Shown here piece after piece: positions 42,897-50,375 of a stretch of DNA of 64,000 nt. The notes under the pieces are model-generated. The model worked only from the letters and a program-made list of their open reading frames with translations, was not told the origin of the DNA and ran no database searches. Position 1 is the first letter of the stretch. Each line of letters opens with the position of its first letter. Source of the DNA: Candidatus Bathyarchaeia archaeon (lineage in GTDB: Archaea > Thermoproteota > Bathyarchaeia > Bathyarchaeales > Bathycorpusculaceae); contig JBEKOM010000001.1 in the NCBI GenBank assembly GCA_049521795.1, forward strand, positions 192,001 to 256,000, written 5' to 3'. Made by a program: the position numbers and the translations under genes.

Positions 42897-42910
42897 GGGT
42901 GGGATTTGAA
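42897..42910 (-). repeat. 14-bp copy of the tRNA-Arg T-arm (direct repeat of 43594-43607)
   Basis: GGGTGGGATTTGAA exact at both positions. Confidence 0.6.
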
Positions 42911-43141
42911 TCTGCAACCAGGCGGTGAAAACTGGCAACTCCTACTTTTTCTATTTTACTTTAGCGTATTTCAAACTATCAGACCTTAATCACGATGAGC
43001 AAAGCTGGGGAAAACGAAGGTCTGCGAAGCATGGCGGTTTCAAAAATATAGGGTCTTCAGAAGGGGTGTGCTTGCAAAGAGACTTCAAAGTTTCGGAAAA
43101 AAGAGCTTATTTGGGAATGCTGTCCTTAGTTCTTCAGTGAG

Positions 43142-43606
43142 ATGCTGAGATTGACGTTCAGAATAGTGAGATATAGAACTGAATATCGGGATGTCGTCGT
43201 GGGGCTGTGGCGAACATGTAACCTAGTCGTTCCCCAGAATGACCCGGTGGAAGACATAGAGAAGAAGATGCATTTCCAACCGAATCTTTTCCTTATAGGC
43301 CTGTTGGATGGGAAGGTGATAGGTTCAATCATGGTTGGTTACGATGGTCACAGAGGTTGGATAAACTATCTTGCTATCACTCCTGAAGATCAGAGATACG
43401 GCTACGGCAGAAAACTGGTTCAAAAAGCCATAGATGAGCTAAAGAAGATGGGTTGCCAGAAGGTAAACCTGCAGATTCGCAGAAGCAATGACAAGGTGAT
43501 CGACTTCTACAAACATATTGGTTTCAAAGAAGATGATGTAGTCAGTCTAGGCATGAGACTCGCTGCAAGGCAACGTACACTTCGTGGCGGGCGGGGTGGG
43601 ATTTGA
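43142..43606 (+). CDS. GNAT acetyltransferase (YpeA-like)
   Basis: GYDGHRGWINYLA, QR.GYG, KVNLQIR..N..V..FY. Confidence 0.92.
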   Translation: MLRLTFRIVRYRTEYRDVVVGLWRTCNLVVPQNDPVEDIEKKMHFQPNLFLIGLLDGKVIGSIMVGYDGHRGWINYLAITPEDQRYGYGRKLVQKAIDELKKMGCQKVNLQIRRSNDKVIDFYKHIGFKEDDVVSLGMRLAARQRTLRGGRGGI

Positions 43607-43717
43607 ACCCACGACCACCAACTTAGGAGGCTGGTGCTCTATCCAGACCAAGCCACAATTCAGGGAGCACCCCCCACAAGAATAATGACCCAGCTATCCG
43701 TCCTGAGCTACCCGCCC
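43585..43717 (-). tRNA. tRNA-Arg(CCT) with encoded CCA and a 55-nt D-loop intron (~43643-43697)
   Basis: Mature form GGGCGGGTAGCTCAGGACGG^ATAGAGCACCAGCCTCCTAAGTTGGTGGTCGTGGGTTCAAATCCCACCCCGCCCGCCA; relaxed BHB with GGAC/GTCT central helix and two GGA bulges. Confidence 0.92.
43631..43644 (+). repeat. attL core
   Basis: Identical to 50129-50142; a second identity block 43694-43719 equals 50137-50162. Confidence 0.9.
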
Positions 43718-44640
43718 AATACATACAGCAACTACCAAGTATAGAAAAGCTTCTAAGACACCTCGAAGGAAAAGGCCGAAGCCCAAACACAGTAACAGCC
43801 TACACTAAAAACCTCAAAGCCTTAGCACTACGAGCAAACCTACAAGACCCCGAAGCAGTAGAAATAGAAATAGCACGCTACAAAAAGAAAAACGAAAGAC
43901 CCGCAACCAACAACTACAAATCCAAACTATGCGACTGCTACAATACCTACTGCAAATTCTACAAAATCCAATGGGAAAAAGCAATCTACACACCCGAACC
44001 CACAACCATACAACCACCATCCAACGAAAAGATACTAATGTTCGTCGCATCCGCCAAAGGCACACTAAGCCTAAAAATTGACATCAGCAACCAAACAGGA
44101 CTCAGACCCATAGAGGTTCAGGGCGAAAAAGGACTACACGCAAAGGACATTCACCCAGACCAAAAAACAATAACAGCCCGAATAACCAAAGGATGCAACG
44201 CAAGACCACCACTTCCAATATCGCCCGAACTTACCGCAAGACTCCAAACATACATAACAAAAAACAACTTACAACCCGACGACCTACTGTTCAAAGGAAG
44301 CGAACGACGGTACGGCGAACACTTCAGAACCTTCAGAAACAGACTAGCCAAAAAACTAAACGACCCAACAATCAAAACAATCCGACTCTACGACCTAAGA
44401 CACGCCTACGCCACAAGACAACTCCGAAGAACACAAAACGCCGAAACCGTCAGAATAATAATGGGCCACAAAAGACTAGATACAACACAAAAATACCTGC
44501 ACCTACTCGGACTAGACAACGGCGAATGGATAGTTGAAGGAACAACAGACAAAAAACGAGCACAAGAACTACTAACCGCAGACTTCACTTACCAACTGAC
44601 AACACCAGACGGAACAATGCTCTTCAAAAAACCGAAATAA
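43645..44640 (+). CDS. Tyrosine integrase, C-terminal fragment int(C)
   Basis: Frame is open from 43627 with no start codon until 44038; RSPNTVTAY, TGLRPIE (R), YDLRH (R), MGH, TQKY (Y). Confidence 0.9.
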   Translation, partial: RPSHNSGSTPHKNNDPAIRPELPAQYIQQLPSIEKLLRHLEGKGRSPNTVTAYTKNLKALALRANLQDPEAVEIEIARYKKKNERPATNNYKSKLCDCYNTYCKFYKIQWEKAIYTPEPTTIQPPSNEKILMFVASAKGTLSLKIDISNQTGLRPIEVQGEKGLHAKDIHPDQKTITARITKGCNARPPLPISPELTARLQTYITKNNLQPDDLLFKGSERRYGEHFRTFRNRLAKKLNDPTIKTIRLYDLRHAYATRQLRRTQNAETVRIIMGHKRLDTTQKYLHLLGLDNGEWIVEGTTDKKRAQELLTADFTYQLTTPDGTMLFKKPK

Positions 44641-44791
44641 AAACAACCTTCTTTTTCTCCTTTCAGTATCATGCTTAACCATTATGTCGCGCTCGCATCA
44701 CGCTCGCGCTCCAACTTACAAGAACTCAAAACAACAATAAGCAGAAAAGGCAGAGCAGTTAAGCGCGTGCGAACTAATCATTAAATACTGA

Positions 44792-45223
44792 ATGCAACAT
44801 ACTGCTCTTGGTGATTCCACGGAAGAACTGAAGAAGAAGTTTATAGTTGAAGAGAAACTGGATGAAAAACGGGTTACCAATTACGTCGAAAGAATTCTTC
44901 CCTTCTGCAAGATATCGAAAGATGGTATGGTAATAGCTGAAGCCAAAGATTTGAAATCACTGCAGAAAGTCAAGCTGGCTTTGGTAGCGAGATATCTAGC
45001 AAACTATCTCGACAAAAACATACCTGCTGAAGTCACTAACGAGGAATTAAGCACTTCTCTAATTATCCCAGAAGACCAGATTGCGGCAAGAATAGCCGAA
45101 CTAAGAGAAGACAAATTCGCAATTCCTGTGAAAAGAGGTTCGCATCAAGCAAACCCTCTGCAAATTGAAGAATTCATAGCAGAGTTAGAGAACACACACC
45201 AAAAGAAAGCGGAGAAACCTTAG
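44792..45223 (+). CDS. Hypothetical cargo protein with C-terminal wHTH-like region
   Basis: VTNEELSTSL......IAARIAELRE...; stop overlaps the next start. Confidence 0.7.
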   Translation: MQHTALGDSTEELKKKFIVEEKLDEKRVTNYVERILPFCKISKDGMVIAEAKDLKSLQKVKLALVARYLANYLDKNIPAEVTNEELSTSLIIPEDQIAARIAELREDKFAIPVKRGSHQANPLQIEEFIAELENTHQKKAEKP

Positions 45224-46014
45224 TGAATCTGAACGACTACTTTCCTAAAGATGAAGTCGAAGATGCCAAATACATAATTCATGAATTTCATGATAAACTG
45301 CTTCTTGATGACAAACCGAGCGACAAAACTGCATTGCTACTGTCACTCTACATGTGCTCTAACAAGAACAAGCAATCCGAGATTACGTACGGCGAAGTTA
45401 GGAAGCTATTCGTTACGCTTGGCAGAAAGGAAGACAATTTCGCAGTGAATCTGTTCAATGCAAAGAGAGAGGAGCTTGTGGATGAAAGACAAGAAGGGCG
45501 AGCAAAATTACTCAGCTTGAAAGTCAAGGGATTAAAAGAAGTAAAGGACACGTTAGGAGAAACGATTGGAGTCAAAACATGGCTGATTGAATCTGGTAAG
45601 GTTTATAGTGGAAAGAAACTTTTCCAAGAGATAGTAATGTCGAAGATTGGTTCTGCAGCCAAAATCTGTGACCCATATTGCGGAACTAGAATTCTCGAGT
45701 TGATAAGTGGAATTGAACACAAGTGCGCAATCTTTCTTTTGACACAAGCAATCGAACAAAAGGAATCCTTCAAAAGGGAGTTGATAGATTTCTCAAAGGA
45801 ATTTCAGCACTTGAAAATTGAGGTTAGAATTTTCAATGGAAAGACGTTGCATGACAGATACATAATATCGGATGGCAATTGCTGGTCTGTTGGTTCAAGT
45901 CTGAAGGATTTTGGGAATAAAGACACCACATTAACGAAACTGGAAGACGAAGTAAGATATGCCGTAGAAGAAATGTTCGACAAGAGATGGCAAGAAGCCA
46001 CTCCGTTTCCATAA
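45223..46014 (+). CDS. Cargo protein with C-terminal PLD-like (HDR-type) nuclease fold
   Basis: ICDPY...LLT...LHDRYII.D...WSVGSSLKDFG.K. Confidence 0.7.
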   Translation: MNLNDYFPKDEVEDAKYIIHEFHDKLLLDDKPSDKTALLLSLYMCSNKNKQSEITYGEVRKLFVTLGRKEDNFAVNLFNAKREELVDERQEGRAKLLSLKVKGLKEVKDTLGETIGVKTWLIESGKVYSGKKLFQEIVMSKIGSAAKICDPYCGTRILELISGIEHKCAIFLLTQAIEQKESFKRELIDFSKEFQHLKIEVRIFNGKTLHDRYIISDGNCWSVGSSLKDFGNKDTTLTKLEDEVRYAVEEMFDKRWQEATPFP

Positions 46015-46184
46015 ATCGCGCGCGCATAGCAGGAACATAATAGGCATTCGTTACACTTCTATCGTCTTTTCTGTTTTGTGCATTCTGTAAATAGAAAGGC
46101 GCGCTAGGCACAATTCAATGTTAACTATTAGAGAAGCAATCTGGCAGTGCAGTCTTTTTAACCAAGCTGGCTTTATTCTTTGTT

Positions 46185-47120
46185 ATGCTGTCAACGACTC
46201 ATTGTCTGCTCACTGGTGGAAGATGTGCTCATTTACCTATCTCTGTTGAATTGAACAGTTTCTTCGTATCCGAGCCTTACGATGAAGAAAGGCAACAAAG
46301 GGAACTCGCAATCAAGAAAGCACTAGAAGGTTTTAACTACATAATATCGGACCACAAAATCATGAATATTGCTCTCACATGCAAGATATGCCGTCAAATT
46401 CAATCATCAGAATTTGGAATCGTAGACATATCTGGATGTAATCCGAACGTCCTGATTGAATTAGGTATGCTGTACGGTTTCAGCAAACCGACAATTATAT
46501 TACTTAAGAAAAGCGAGCACCCTGAGTTTGACGTTCCATCGAACATTAAGGGAATCGAGCAAATTCGATACGAGGATTTTGACGAAATCACTGGAAAAAT
46601 AAAGAAAACCGTGAGCGTGTTTTTTGAGCTTCGGGCCAAAATGGATGAATACATAATTGACATGAGACCCATGCTTCAGCATCTCATACGGAGGCTTGAA
46701 ATTGAAATTGAAACGAGAAAATTGGTCGAAACTGGACTCAAATCTCAGATTATTGATTTCAAGACTCTTGGAAATGTTGGGGTTGTTATACTTGACAAAG
46801 GAACAAGAAATGGTGTCAAAACAGGCATGATTTTTGAGGTCTACCGCTCTGATAGAATCTCTATGGGAGACTATCTAGAAGAGAATGTTGGTCTAATCAT
46901 AGTGACATTTGCTCAAGAAAGAATTGCACAGTGTCAACCATTACAGATTGACCCAGACCTGCAGTTCTGGAAAGATGTTTCTTCAAACACTTTTGCCAAA
47001 AATGTCGTTAAGCCATACCCGAGTAAGACGTACAAAGATATTTCGATAGAGCAAGCAAAGACTATCCTAAGCAAAGCAGAAATATTGCACGAATACATGT
47101 ACTCTGGTAGGGTATGTTGA
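46185..47120 (+). CDS. Cargo protein: NDT/TIR-like nucleotide hydrolase fused to a FlgT-C-like beta domain
   Basis: FFVSEPY, IVDIS..NPNVLIELG......KP.IIL, VPSNI.G...IRY; then ILDKG...GVK.GMIFEVYR. Confidence 0.7.
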   Translation: MLSTTHCLLTGGRCAHLPISVELNSFFVSEPYDEERQQRELAIKKALEGFNYIISDHKIMNIALTCKICRQIQSSEFGIVDISGCNPNVLIELGMLYGFSKPTIILLKKSEHPEFDVPSNIKGIEQIRYEDFDEITGKIKKTVSVFFELRAKMDEYIIDMRPMLQHLIRRLEIEIETRKLVETGLKSQIIDFKTLGNVGVVILDKGTRNGVKTGMIFEVYRSDRISMGDYLEENVGLIIVTFAQERIAQCQPLQIDPDLQFWKDVSSNTFAKNVVKPYPSKTYKDISIEQAKTILSKAEILHEYMYSGRVC

Positions 47121-47509
47121 TGTCAGCTATGCTGAAGGGCAAAATTCTGAAAATCTTGAGTAGTTACAGCGTTGTCATCAGTCTTGGCAAGGAGCAAGGC
47201 GTTACAAAGGATATGAAATTCATTATTTATGAGGAAGGGGATATGATAAAGGATCCCGAAACTGGAGCAGATATTGAGAAATTGGAAATTCTGAAAGGAG
47301 AAGTGACTGTCACTCAGGTCCAAGAAAAAATCAGCGTTGCAGAAAGCTTTGCGATCGAAAAGAGAGTATACAATCCTCTTGATGTGGTGTACGCATACAC
47401 ATCTAGAACTGTCATAACAAAAGAGAAGAAACCGCTAACTGACGAAGCCATTGAAGCTCCTGCTCCTTCTAAAGTGAAAATCGGAGACCTTGTCAGGCAA
47501 ATTTCGTGA
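47114..47509 (+). CDS. Cargo protein: stand-alone FlgT-C-like domain
   Basis: VVISLG..QGV...M.F.IYE.G..I.DPETG, V.V.QVQEK.S, VKIGD.V; overlaps the upstream gene. Confidence 0.7.
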   Translation: MLMSAMLKGKILKILSSYSVVISLGKEQGVTKDMKFIIYEEGDMIKDPETGADIEKLEILKGEVTVTQVQEKISVAESFAIEKRVYNPLDVVYAYTSRTVITKEKKPLTDEAIEAPAPSKVKIGDLVRQIS

Positions 47510-47576
47510 TATCCTCACAACACGATGTTGAACAGGGTGCTCGAGCCAAGTCGTGCGCAACACCAATAACCATACT

Positions 47577-47738
47577 CTAAAAAGCCTCCAAAATCAGCCA
47601 GCCATCAACAAAAGACCAACGTCTCTTACGATAACCAGACAACTTAACCAAACGCTTCAAGGGAACAGACTCAATACGGCAACCCTGAGCACGAACAGAA
47701 ACAAACAGACGCACCTTGCCCAAAAGCACAGCCTTCAT
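47577..47738 (-). CDS. Small basic protein (53 aa) downstream of rep
   Basis: Manual translation MKAVLLGKVRLFVSV...DGWLILEAF*; starts 8 nt after the rep stop. Confidence 0.5.
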   Translation of the reverse strand: MKAVLLGKVRLFVSVRAQGCRIESVPLKRLVKLSGYRKRRWSFVDGWLILEAF

Positions 47739-47746
47739 AGCTACCG

Positions 47747-48724
47747 CTATTCGACTCGACGGATTACAGCGTCAGGATAGTTAGGTTGACCGAGCTCATC
47801 AAACTCATAGTCAACAAACCAAGGAACATAGTCAGGGTGACCGACATCCTTAACGATGTGACGCTTACCAACGTAAGCGCACGTACCCATTTCTTCACCG
47901 CAAGCAGGACAGACATCTTCGGACTCCAACCGCACACCCTTAAACTTACGATAACTCATCGAACCAAACCACGTGACAACGTGAAAACGCCCGACACCGA
48001 CCCGAATCGTCGCATGGTTCAACTGATACCAAGCCGTACCGAGAAGGGTCTTGCGTTTATCGTGAACCTTAACGAGAATGCCATCCTTTTCACCGCATCT
48101 ATAATTACGGTCAACAAAGCCACCGCAACCCTTGAAACAAGCCCTCTTGCAAGCACGGCACTTCTCTCGGCCAGCGACAGAAGCGAGAGTGTGATAGTGA
48201 GGACTCCAAACCAAACGCTGAAGGATTCTGTTAATGCGGAATCCGTGAAAAATCATGCAACCGCCGACAACGCCCCTGTCCAGCAAAGCCTTTCTAGCCT
48301 TCACTCGCAACGCGACCTCAGGCAAATGCCTATCAGCCTCAGGAAAAGACACCGTGACGTGCTCGGCAACACCTAGACCACGCCTCTCAGCCTCAATCAA
48401 ACGGCCCTCAATACTACGAGCCTCACGGAGAGCCCAACCGCGAATAAAGCAGACAGGACAGCTACTCTTATGACACCACAGATGCTTATGACGAACAACT
48501 ACCTTATCCGTACAATCTACCCCGCCAACGAAAACGCCTTTATGCCCTTCGACGTTCTTACAAACCTTGTAAGCAACCCAACGACCGCAAAAATCGCAAG
48601 TTTTAGCACCCCTGCCAACAGGCTGATAATTCTCATGCCCAACGTTGTCAACGGGCAGACACCAATACTTATTCTTCAAAATAGCCCTATTCAAACGCAG
48701 ACGCTCAGAAAAGGAACGGTTCAC
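47747..48724 (-). CDS. HUH rolling-circle replication initiator, Cys-rich
   Basis: HVTVS (motif I), GG..IFH.FR, WSPHYH (HUH), WYQLNH (catalytic Tyr), several CxxC. Confidence 0.8.
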   Translation of the reverse strand: MNRSFSERLRLNRAILKNKYWCLPVDNVGHENYQPVGRGAKTCDFCGRWVAYKVCKNVEGHKGVFVGGVDCTDKVVVRHKHLWCHKSSCPVCFIRGWALREARSIEGRLIEAERRGLGVAEHVTVSFPEADRHLPEVALRVKARKALLDRGVVGGCMIFHGFRINRILQRLVWSPHYHTLASVAGREKCRACKRACFKGCGGFVDRNYRCGEKDGILVKVHDKRKTLLGTAWYQLNHATIRVGVGRFHVVTWFGSMSYRKFKGVRLESEDVCPACGEEMGTCAYVGKRHIVKDVGHPDYVPWFVDYEFDELGQPNYPDAVIRRVE

Positions 48725-48748
48725 AGCCTCAACCGATACCAGCCAAAA

Positions 48749-48967
48749 TCACCTCAACTCTCCATTCAAATAACGATCAGGATGCTTCTCTACCCACTCC
48801 ACAAATCTCGCATCCTCTTCATCCTCCTCATCCATCTCACGCTCAAATCTCCTATAATGAGGACATTTGAAACACCTAGCCATGATTCCAAACTTTGCGT
48901 CTTTACGATACGAACAGAGAACGTCAGGCAAAAACGCGCAGGATAACAACGTTTCAGATGAAGCCAT
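48749..48967 (-). CDS. Small Cys-containing protein upstream of rep
   Basis: 72 aa, C..C..CFKC, acidic tract; co-oriented with rep. Confidence 0.55.
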   Translation of the reverse strand: MASSETLLSCAFLPDVLCSYRKDAKFGIMARCFKCPHYRRFEREMDEEDEEDARFVEWVEKHPDRYLNGELR

Positions 48968-49050
48968 TCCTTACATCCCTCTCTAAATCATTCCCTAATC
49001 AACGAATGAGATATATAGATATTCAAGGGTATACTCATAATTGAGGGACA

Positions 49051-49788
49051 ATGGTGAATCCTAACAATTCCAGCTACAAACAGTACAACCAACAACTGAT
49101 TCTAATGGCTCTTTTAGACGGTCAATGGCACCGAAACATGGAACTCAAAGAGAAAACCAAATTGACCGCTCGCACATTATCCAAGCATTTAGATGAATTG
49201 GAAGAAGAACTTCACTGGATAGAAAAGAAAAAAGATACTGAAAGCGGAAAATACCCATATCCCGTTCTCTACAAAGCCAACCCGACAACCATAAAACACA
49301 CAAAATTCGTCATGTCAATCCACGAATATGCGGACAACATAGAAACAACGTTAAAGGAAACAAAAGACCCCTTCCTAATGTTAGATAATTTTCACATGCT
49401 CAACCAACTAACCTTCACACTAATCTTGATGGCAGTTCAAAGTAACAAATACATGACTTGGAAACAAATAGATTATGCGACAAGCTTCTTTCTTTTTTCA
49501 CCTTACGAAATCTATACTCAAAACCTAGTTACAGCAATCACCAAAGCCATACAATCAGGCGCACGATTTGACGTCAAACAACTATTAGTATCTCAAGCGA
49601 AACGACGAAGAGTAATTCCCGAAGAGATTATCAAACCCTACGACGAACTGGGAATACTAACGCCGTATCCGACAAAGCACGTTACGGCAAAGCGTGACCT
49701 AATAACGCAAGACAAAAATCAAACTTACACACGCACTGGGAAGTCTCCTCGAAGGCATAAGCCTTTCCCTCATTTAAAAAAGAGGTAA
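49051..49788 (+). CDS. Winged-HTH regulator of the element
   Basis: LMALLDG.WH...ELK.KT.L..RTLSKHL.EL; divergent from the rep operon. Confidence 0.75.
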   Translation: MVNPNNSSYKQYNQQLILMALLDGQWHRNMELKEKTKLTARTLSKHLDELEEELHWIEKKKDTESGKYPYPVLYKANPTTIKHTKFVMSIHEYADNIETTLKETKDPFLMLDNFHMLNQLTFTLILMAVQSNKYMTWKQIDYATSFFLFSPYEIYTQNLVTAITKAIQSGARFDVKQLLVSQAKRRRVIPEEIIKPYDELGILTPYPTKHVTAKRDLITQDKNQTYTRTGKSPRRHKPFPHLKKR

Positions 49789-49870
49789 AGTTAGAAATCA
49801 TCCCGTCATGGAAGCCACACAACTTGAAAACAAAAGTGACTCGCTAGGCTTCCAATGACTAGAATCTTTT

Positions 49871-50041
49871 ATGAAAGGCATATTGCCTTCTCGTCGCGTC
49901 AACGAAAAAACAATGAAGGTCTGTGAAATGAGAATCGGAGATGTGAAAATGAGAACCCTTAATAGAACCCCAGAAGAAGTACGAGTCGCCCAGCTATGGG
50001 CAGAAATGGAACTATCAAAACTTTTGAAGGTGAAAGAATGA
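49871..50041 (+). CDS. Small protein (56 aa) coupled to int(N)
   Basis: MKGILPSRR...LLKVKE*; ATGA overlap with ATG 50038. Confidence 0.45.
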   Translation: MKGILPSRRVNEKTMKVCEMRIGDVKMRTLNRTPEEVRVAQLWAEMELSKLLKVKE

Positions 50042-50178
50042 CTACAGAAGAGACTGAAACACAGGGTAAAGCCACAAATCCAATGGACAATCAAGCAGAA
50101 AACAAAGAAGCTTTACTAAGGATAAAGTCTGGTGCTCTATCCGTCCTGAGCTACCCGCCCAACATTTCATTAGGCTGA
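50038..50178 (+). CDS. Integrase N-terminal fragment int(N), reading through attR
   Basis: MTTEE...RIKSGALS crosses the att core in the same codon phase as int(C); alternative start 49996. Confidence 0.75.
   Translation: MTTEETETQGKATNPMDNQAENKEALLRIKSGALSVLSYPPNISLG
50129..50160 (-). repeat. attR: displaced, intronless 5' part of tRNA-Arg
   Basis: Reverse complement GGGCGGGTAGCTCAGGACGGATAGAGCACCAG equals the spliced 5' 32 nt. Confidence 0.92.
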
Positions 50179-50264
50179 GACTAGTTTGATGCGGTGTAGA
50201 TTTTAACCTAGTGCCAGCCTCTGCAAAAAAGTTTAACTGCACACAAATATCAACCTTTATCGCT

Positions 50265-50375
50265 GCGGGGGTACCCGAGCCAGGTCTAAATAGGCGGGCC
50301 AGAAGCCTAAGACAAGGGGGAGGACTTAAGATCCTCTGGCGAAGGCCTCCGTGGGTTCGAATCCCACCCCCCGCA
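50265..50375 (+). tRNA. tRNA-Leu(TAA) with 26-nt D-loop intron (50290-50315)
   Basis: GCGGGGG acceptor strand, GAGGA-CTTAAGA-TCCTC anticodon arm, long variable arm, BHB-type GTCT-AAA-TAGGC...GCCTA-AGAC-AAG. Confidence 0.92.

Follow-up and report, generated by a model that had tools for sequence, protein, structure and literature searches.

How a tRNA gene acquires an intron away from its anticodon loop is the question raised by a tRNA-Arg(CCT) gene in a 64,000-nucleotide stretch of a Bathyarchaeia genome (hereafter called the window). The gene stands at one end (attL) of an integrated element and carries an extra 55 nt in its D-loop, whereas the displaced fragment of the same gene at the other end (attR) does not. 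Where the many non-canonical introns of archaeal tRNA genes come from has long been unanswered.

Non-canonical introns bordered by a relaxed bulge-helix-bulge (BHB), and an 'intron transposition' in Thermoproteales, were described by Fujishima et al. 2010 (cited in PMC4090602). Randau and Soll 2008 (cited in PMC4090602 and PMC3293823) hypothesized that an intron shields a tRNA gene from integrating elements. In Thaumarchaeota, tRNA genes with introns have been reported as integration sites by Krupovic et al. 2019 (PMC6563490), the cited part of which offers no model of intron gain. Such a model, in which a mobile element brings the intron, was proposed by Sugahara et al. 2012 (PMC3293823) for the tRNA-Thr(GGU) gene of Candidatus Caldiarchaeum subterraneum. 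In its cited part, the same paper suggests that the intron may also block further invasion, and a review refers to the model as a proposal (Badel et al. 2021, PMC8371274). The first-pass annotation of the window had suggested that integration converts an intronless host gene into a spliced one, and it pointed to a similar idea for Caldiarchaeum; the model in question is indeed that of Sugahara et al. In the main text of openly accessible papers, no such case turned up for Bathyarchaeia, nor one of a split integrase whose frame encloses the intron.

An interrupted tRNA-Arg(CCT) gene beside a split integrase

The acceptor, D, anticodon and T arms can all be read on the minus strand of the attL gene, and reading of the sequence bore out the 55-nt D-loop insert that had been noted there (Table 1). 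Standard searches handle the gene poorly. ARAGORN at default settings returned no tRNA anywhere in the window, and with introns allowed it mislabelled the attL gene as tRNA-Pro(tgg) with an anticodon-loop intron; the match of the Rfam tRNA model was limited to 43595-43656, the 3' two-thirds of the gene. Once the insert had been deleted in silico, ARAGORN called a canonical cloverleaf, tRNA-Arg(cct) of 78 nt, and this insert-free sequence equals the intronless gene of another genome of the genus (G001) except for one D-loop base. The attL gene is the sole tRNA-Arg(CCT) gene found in the assembly, which is 98.75% complete.

Table 1 Features of the tRNA-Arg(CCT) locus and the integrated element in the window.
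Feature	Position	Strand	Remarks
tRNA-Arg(CCT) gene, attL	43585-43717	minus	133 nt: 78-nt tRNA including encoded CCA, plus 55-nt D-loop insert
5' exon	43696-43717	minus	by conserved register
Insert (candidate intron), 55 nt	43641-43695	minus	plus strand encodes integrase residues RPSHNSGSTPHKNNDPA
3' exon with CCA	43585-43640	minus	by conserved register
Helix h', 5' arm	43685-43694	minus	tRNA positions 24-33; right after the bulge
Helix h', 3' arm	43647-43656	minus	tRNA-gene positions 62-71
Candidate TATA box, TTTTCTATA	43740-43748	minus	23-31 nt upstream of tRNA 5' end, within integrase coding sequence
14-bp identity block, attL	43631-43644		inferred crossover region
14-bp identity block, attR	50129-50142		partner of 43631-43644
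26-bp identity block, attL	43694-43719		tRNA positions 1-24 plus 2 nt upstream; element-carried copy
26-bp identity block, attR	50137-50162		host copy
Integrated element, 6498 bp	43645-50142		ends ambiguous inside the 14-bp repeat
Integrase C-terminal part, tyrosine recombinase catalytic domain	43645-44640	plus	Pfam PF00589, E = 7.6e-13
Integrase N-terminal part (MTTEETETQGK...SGALS)	50038-50142	plus	alternative ATG at 49996
Displaced intronless host 5' half, 32 nt	50129-50160	minus	native upstream flank still attached
Cargo ORFs	44792-49788		44792-45223, 45223-46014, 46185-47120, 47114-47509, 47747-48724 (-), 48749-48967 (-), 49051-49788

The motif TTTTCTATA may be a TATA box for the rebuilt tRNA, and T/A-rich octamers resembling it occur at the equivalent position in related loci. 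On the minus strand at 42897-42920, a stretch of 24 nt is 83% identical to the tRNA-Arg 3' end (T-loop plus acceptor) and has no T-arm fold; it may be an old att remnant. A GNAT acetyltransferase gene occupies 43142-43606; in a second genome of the genus (G002) it lies 1.2 kb from the tRNA and does not directly adjoin it.

The integrase is encoded in two parts at opposite ends of the element. Its C-terminal frame stays open between 43627 and 44640, with no ATG, GTG or TTG ahead of 44038, and specifies the core-binding and catalytic portions of a tyrosine recombinase. The protein also matches PHROG integrase families, and among 341 homologues of ~330 aa the R, H and Y positions are found in the invariant columns. 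The N-terminal frame spans 49966-50178, and the N-part within it ends ...LLRIKSGALS, running into the intronless tRNA copy at attR; N-termini similar to it were found at three related loci (L068, L078 and L086). An attP inside the integrase reading frame, N and C parts at the two ends of the element, flanking direct repeats of tRNA sequence and an empty site in relatives together place the element among those with SSV-type integrases.

The fragment at attR had been described as the displaced 5' half of the host gene, and it is exactly the first 32 nt of the intronless tRNA. Beyond it follow the native upstream region and then a divergent neighbouring tRNA. This neighbour (50264-50375, plus strand) resembles a tRNA-Leu(TAA) with a long variable arm and ~20 nt extra between the D-arm and the anticodon stem, as read by eye only; it was missed by ARAGORN and by Rfam at the gathering threshold.

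Among the cargo, the ORF at 46185-47120 gave a weak TIR-like match and the ORF at 49051-49788 a weak winged-helix match. The former belongs to a plus-strand region (46185-47509) in which an ORF has a borderline match to the CAP12/Pycsar effector TIR family (PF10137, 24.8 bits against a cut-off of 24.7) and overlaps a small ORF with an FlgT_C-like match; this region may be a defence module. A second integrase copy of the same family is absent from the assembly, which holds one only. Because of this and because that single copy is split, excision by the element's own enzyme is doubtful, and so is the suggestion of the first-pass annotation that excision undoes the conversion.

The crossover site and the intronless host gene

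attL and attR share two identical blocks, one of 14 bp and one of 26 bp, and the direction in which the insert moved depends on which of them was the crossover site. If an element with an intronless 5' half had crossed over in the 26-bp block, the longer of the two repeats, the host tRNA would already have borne the intron and integration would have installed nothing. Homologous inserts in native context, as described below for G010, L049, L053 and L097, would fit such a history. The integrase frame argues against it. Both the C-part and the N-part frames read 'GALS' across the 14-bp block, and a join at this block gives an integrase ORF of 366 aa that is free of stops, in which RPSHNSGSTPHKNNDPA comes from the insert and IRPELPAQ from the tRNA 5' part. 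A join at the 26-bp block, by contrast, meets a stop at codon 49, so the claim that solely a crossover in the 14-bp block restores the frame holds. It follows from the 14-bp join that, within the integrase gene of the free element, the 14-bp block must have been followed by the insert and then by the tRNA 5' part, and that the host gene it met was intronless.

Empty sites in the same genus agree with this order of events. In G001 and G002, tRNA-Arg(CCT) is intronless, and the sequence corresponding to window positions 50377-50126 is joined straight to that of 43644-43583, at 93-98% identity and exactly at the 14-bp block. The collinearity refers to the tRNA-upstream side; the far flank is unmatched in one genome and 1.2 kb away in the other.

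The insert-bearing attP can be seen in related sequences. A protein of 345 aa (P0054) begins with MLRLLRIKTGALS, followed by 16 residues and then IRTELPAQQYIQQLP, which is the architecture of the window's rejoined integrase. At the metagenome locus L068, the N-part, the 14-bp block, a 43-nt insert, the tRNA 5' part and the start of the C-part are contiguous in a single frame. Both thus present N-part, GALS, insert, IRxELPAQ and C-part start in one frame. Of the eight loci with both ends, three (the window, L027 and L029) regain a complete integrase when joined at the 14-bp block, L029 independently following the same frame logic; the other five att pairs yield no restored integrase because they are decayed. 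Set against these observations, a host gene that had its intron before the element arrived is very hard to credit.

The frame test, the intronless sites of G001 and G002, the layout of related elements, P0054 and L068 all uphold the claim that attP carries the insert-bearing 5' half. Comparison of the DNA sequences shows that an attP with the insert replaced the intronless 5' half of the host gene, as the frame test, the empty sites and the related layouts consistently indicate. The elements of the Sugahara model are all represented: an intronless attB (G001 and G002), an insert-bearing attP (deduced for the window from its frame, directly visible in P0054 and L068) and an intronless 5' fragment displaced to attR.

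In this reconstruction, the attP of the element, antisense to the integrase, begins with the 14-bp core (equal to tRNA positions 19-32), continues with the 55-nt insert and ends with a copy of positions 1-24. An intronless host tRNA-Arg(CCT) recombined with it at the core, which split the integrase gene and moved the 5' half of the host gene to attR, at the opposite end of the element. The tRNA at attL was rebuilt from the host's 3' part and the insert-bearing 5' part of the element.

Contigs of four peat metagenome runs contained no circular attP junction. One contig from these runs (X2) joins 43634 to 50133, a skip of 6498 with 10 ambiguous letters; this empty-site contig has 31 nt on its shorter side and a depth of 2.4, and it may derive from another species. 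The remaining joints and loose ends at 43644 in the peat contigs are other tRNA variants. Both copies of the 26-bp block are identical, including the D-loop base G16, which differs in G001, G002 and G010, and gene conversion between the copies is possible.

A candidate relaxed splice motif at the exon junction

The splice motif first suggested for the insert was a GGAC/GUCU helix with two GGA bulges. It can be drawn in the window with its four pairs, as had been stated, but it is not the minimum-energy fold and it is not conserved. In most of 15 related inserts examined, one of the four pairs forms, and the corresponding GG|A BHB register was rejected.

A different register is conserved. C18-G and G19-C/U are paired in 16 of 16 sequences and G20 in 7 of them; this short helix is followed by a 3-nt bulge, A21-U22-N23 (A21 U22 A23 in the window), and then by a locus-specific helix, h' in Table 1. 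Cleavage in archaeal tRNA splicing takes place after the second base of the bulge. In the conserved register, the cuts would fall at GGAU|N at the 5' site and GGAU|A at the 3' site, four positions across the short helix, which is the spacing of a bulge-helix-bulge. A strict hBHBh' motif, that is, two 3-nt bulges and a 4-bp helix, is not present: the 5' site alone has a 3-nt bulge, the 3' site lies within a 3x3 or 4x4 internal loop against the D-stem, and the helix between the cut sites comprises 2-3 standard pairs only, G20 being unpaired in 9 of the 16 sequences. What is found is the relaxed motif of helix, 3-nt bulge and helix, at a fixed place at the exon junction and with compensatory changes.

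The contiguous helix after the bulge amounts to 78 pairs in the 16 genome sequences, compared to 12.6 +/- 4.8 after shuffling (maximum 31 in 2000 shuffles), and none of the other registers scores high. For 64 distinct metagenome inserts the corresponding values are 452 pairs and 52 +/- 10 (maximum 89 in 1000 shuffles), with the first four helix positions paired in 60-63 of the 64 by 5-7 pair types. When 17 inserts of 55 nt were aligned free of gaps, 10 of 10 helix pairs were seen to change on both sides, and 87.6% of the cells were paired. The covariation score of this alignment is 0.511, against 0.199 for shuffled inserts (none of 500 shuffles reaches it) and no more than 0.163 when the register is slid; relatedness of the aligned inserts makes the shuffle counts overstate significance, a weakness that the slide control does not share. 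The helix of the metagenome inserts is rich in G·U and U·G pairs and poor in A·C, so it belongs to RNA of the tRNA sense and not to DNA or to the integrase mRNA. A hairpin acting as a DNA inverted repeat for integrase binding was rejected on the same ground, the G·U pairs being strand-specific.

The genome encodes two splicing-endonuclease paralogues (PF01974) of 185 and 189 aa, at C1:264687-265244 and C5:55404-55973, one with the Tyr/His/Lys positions and the other lacking the His. This may correspond to the subunit pattern of the broad-specificity alpha2-beta2 type, which accepts relaxed motifs. Such an enzyme would cut the pre-tRNA at GGAU|A ... GGAU|A and thereby remove the insert, the predicted splice signal being a relaxed helix-bulge-helix made of a 2-3 bp helix (C18-G20), an A-U-N bulge and a long helix within the insert. 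Splicing of the insert from the pre-tRNA is likely, judged by the conserved fold. Elsewhere in the same genome (G000), ARAGORN with introns allowed reported many tRNAs with odd intron positions and doubtful anticodons; non-canonical introns seem common in it.

Alternatively, the insert could stay unspliced and leave the attL tRNA dead or defective, with AGG read by tRNA-Arg(UCU) and the hairpin serving, e.g., integrase binding or expression. ARAGORN does call a tRNA-Arg(tct) gene in the genome, on contig C5; this tRNA might cover AGG codons by wobble, and the attL gene therefore need not be functional. The absence of a strict BHB is in line with an unspliced insert as well, and so is its coding role in the integrase. 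Division of the insert length by 3 leaves a remainder of 1 in 55 of the 64 distinct inserts from metagenomes, of 0 in 7 and of 2 in 2, which is a sign of coding constraint; these lengths were taken as the matched gap plus 4, and relatedness inflates the count, which by length class is 7 of 13. Among 15 genome inserts the remainder is 1 in 6, 0 in 7 and 2 in 2, which fits two protein frames across the tRNA part (IRxEL and SVLSY).

These points have to be weighed against the compensatory changes in the helix, many of them to tRNA-sense G·U pairs that would be A·C mismatches in the integrase mRNA and G·T in DNA, and against the one fixed register that the helix keeps beside the exon junction. Moreover, the element-free G010 retains an insert-bearing gene, with no intronless copy found in its 63%-complete assembly, and another relative (G009) pairs A6 with U where the genus otherwise has G-C. 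We thus regard an unspliced insert as quite unlikely and favor its removal by the host enzyme.

Distribution of the layout among relatives

The integrase family was found at 24 genome loci, nearly all of them in Bathyarchaeia MAGs. At 13 of the 22 genome loci examined, the C-part is directly preceded by a tRNA-Arg(CCT) gene in antisense orientation, with an insert of 30 to 99 nt at the same D-loop position. The tRNA adjoining the integrase is intronless at L026 and L033, and the displaced attR halves of L027, L030, L038, L039 and L041 are intronless, too.

Metagenome contigs were scanned for the pattern as well; 95 stretches matched, and 80 of them were retrieved for inspection. The combination of tRNA, insert and integrase C-part is present in 48 of these. 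A further 25 have the tRNA and the insert with no integrase called at first, and a looser search revealed remnants in 7 of them; in 6 loci the left side is not tRNA, and 1 is too short. The same kind of scan of viral contigs produced 0 matches.

An intronless gene in element-free relatives had been the expectation of the first-pass annotation, and the empty sites of G001 and G002 conform to it. The wider survey bears it out in part. Twenty tRNA loci of relatives were read, one of which is the window's own copy, and among the 19 others 11 are intronless. Two have a D-loop insert (G009 and G010), and here the expectation fails for G010, which is element-free and carries a homologous 43-nt insert in the D-loop. 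Four loci contain a different insert, after position 9, one has a canonical anticodon-loop intron, and one is another tRNA.

The position-9 insert belongs to a second widespread form of tRNA-Arg(CCT), characterized by an insert of ~28 nt; its leader has an extra GGGCGG-like copy, and GTTATAAC is conserved upstream. This form was seen in L005 (G004), L010 (G017), L012 (G029), L019 (G030) and L044 and in the attR halves of L028 and L029. A second element family marked by the GTTATAAC flank and the position-9 insert was considered and rejected, since the same flank stands upstream of displaced host halves; by its position, the flank looks like a host promoter variant.

One locus in G009 (L006, C29:1-912) is a decayed copy of an element of the same family, 74% identical over 900 nt, with several stops and frameshifts in the integrase. 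Its tRNA is the one in which A6 of the 5' half pairs with U of the 3' half, the rest of the genus having G-C. Acceptor-stem A-C mismatches were rejected as a mark of element origin, as host attR copies share A6.

Two further integrases are encoded in G000. The second (L147, C1:382598-383744, minus strand) is 28% identical and has a 382-aa frame running antisense through tRNA-Arg(GCG) (C1:383528-383642, plus strand), a gene with a D-loop insert of ~37 nt after GGAU. No displaced 5' half (attR) was found for it in the assembly; this distant integrase in the same genome hints at a more general trick. The third (L146, C4:107767-108627) is 30% identical and lies directly 3' of the archaeal RNase P RNA gene (RF00373, 192 bits).

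Retention, re-targeting and origin of the insert

Inserts are also found in genes that have no element. In G010, from the same genus, the tRNA has its native upstream flank and host sequence downstream, and the 43-nt insert, known in two strain variants, occupies the usual D-loop position. The metagenome loci L049/L061, L053 and L097 are likewise element-free, with native flank and insert. The native inserts of L049 and L053 share 96% and 88% identity with those of L096 (integrase-linked) and L059, respectively. Since element-free genes carry homologous inserts, the intron can stay behind. Recombination between the 24-26-bp repeats of the 5' half could delete the element and leave the intron in a native gene.

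Displaced attR halves that themselves bear an insert occur with native flank at L078 and L086, and beside older integrase remnants at L032, L035 and L042. Insert-bearing genes have therefore been targeted again, and the site is not shielded from this family. The suggestion that the intron masks the site is thus contradicted as far as this family is concerned.

As to the source of the insert, 7 of 16 inserts match positions ~25-66 of their own tRNA significantly and in collinear order, with 21 of 21 nt identical in L032. For this reason, the insert has the appearance of a partial tRNA duplicate that has since decayed. The window's own insert gave no significant ungapped match to its tRNA.

At the level of the family, these data could also be read in reverse: an old host D-loop intron in some Bathyarchaeia would have been captured by imprecise excision, and the elements would merely pass it on. 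Introns in native context are widespread, the 7 inserts with tRNA copies are tRNA-derived and not foreign, and the insert-bearing attR halves show that intron-bearing hosts were targeted, all of which would suit a capture. However, with 11 of 19 loci in the window's genus and family intronless, presence of the intron looks derived. Native and coding inserts share their length classes (43, 52, 55 and 64 nt), and the displaced host half in the window is intronless regardless. On balance, a capture followed by mere transmission appears somewhat improbable, though it deserves to be kept in mind.

We consider it probable that one joint explanation applies, namely intron gain by an insert-bearing attP, splicing by the host endonuclease and retention of the intron when the element is lost. 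A more far-reaching proposal would make the integrase family a working intron shuttle, its insert serving as a linker on one strand and as a spliceable hairpin on the other, having originated as a decayed, partial tRNA duplicate and having repeatedly seeded D-loop introns in native tRNA-Arg(CCT) genes across Bathyarchaeia whenever recombination between the 5'-half repeats removed the element. On this wider proposal we are evenly divided.

Discussion

Intron gain by integration was already published as an idea in 2012 for Caldiarchaeum, and the present case is a broader and better resolved variant of it. As described in the cited part of PMC3293823, the two cases have in common an intron-bearing attP that meets an intronless attB, a 5' fragment free of the intron on the opposite side of the insertion, and a gene for a recombinase adjoining the rebuilt tRNA. 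The Caldiarchaeum insertion is pNOB8-like and 1.8 kb long, its recombinase does not overlap the tRNA, its intron is located at 24/25, and it is known from one locus in one population. In the window, by contrast, the integrase is of the split SSV type, and the insert is inside the reading frame and encodes part of the integrase. The target is the D-loop of tRNA-Arg(CCT), dozens of related loci share the layout, and in this family empty, integrated, attP-like and intron-left-behind states are all seen.

With SSV-type integrases, as outlined in the cited parts of PMC3293823 and PMC8371274, the window shares an attP inside the integrase gene and an integration that splits the gene into N and C parts overlapping the rebuilt tRNA and the repeat. 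According to the same sources, the attP of SSV1 is a contiguous 44-bp copy of the 3' end of a tRNA. In the family seen here it is the 5' part that is targeted, and an insert of 30-99 nt breaks up the element's tRNA copy.

The non-anticodon position and the helix-bulge-helix border are common to the window's insert and the non-canonical archaeal introns treated in the cited part of PMC4090602, and the lineage resembles the cases discussed there in having many such introns and two endonuclease paralogues. Unlike in the Thermoproteales introns, the vehicle of the intron is visible here, and the 3' site is in an internal loop and not in a bulge. A link between tRNA introns and integrating elements is also the core of the hypothesis by Randau and Soll, as cited in these papers. 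In the window, however, the intron leaves the 14-bp crossover block intact, and no protection against its own family is evident.

The sole published mechanism of intron gain with a visible vehicle has come from a single Caldiarchaeum locus. The same mechanism is now found in another phylum-level group, the Bathyarchaeia, with a different type of integrase, and dozens of related loci cover every step: the empty site, the integrated element, the attP-like junction and the retained intron. Covariation supports the inserted piece as a structured RNA. One and the same stretch of DNA is under two constraints: one strand keeps a protein frame, and the other keeps an RNA helix. If the family does act as an intron shuttle, it would provide the first family-wide, state-by-state record of how a non-canonical archaeal tRNA intron is born and becomes fixed.
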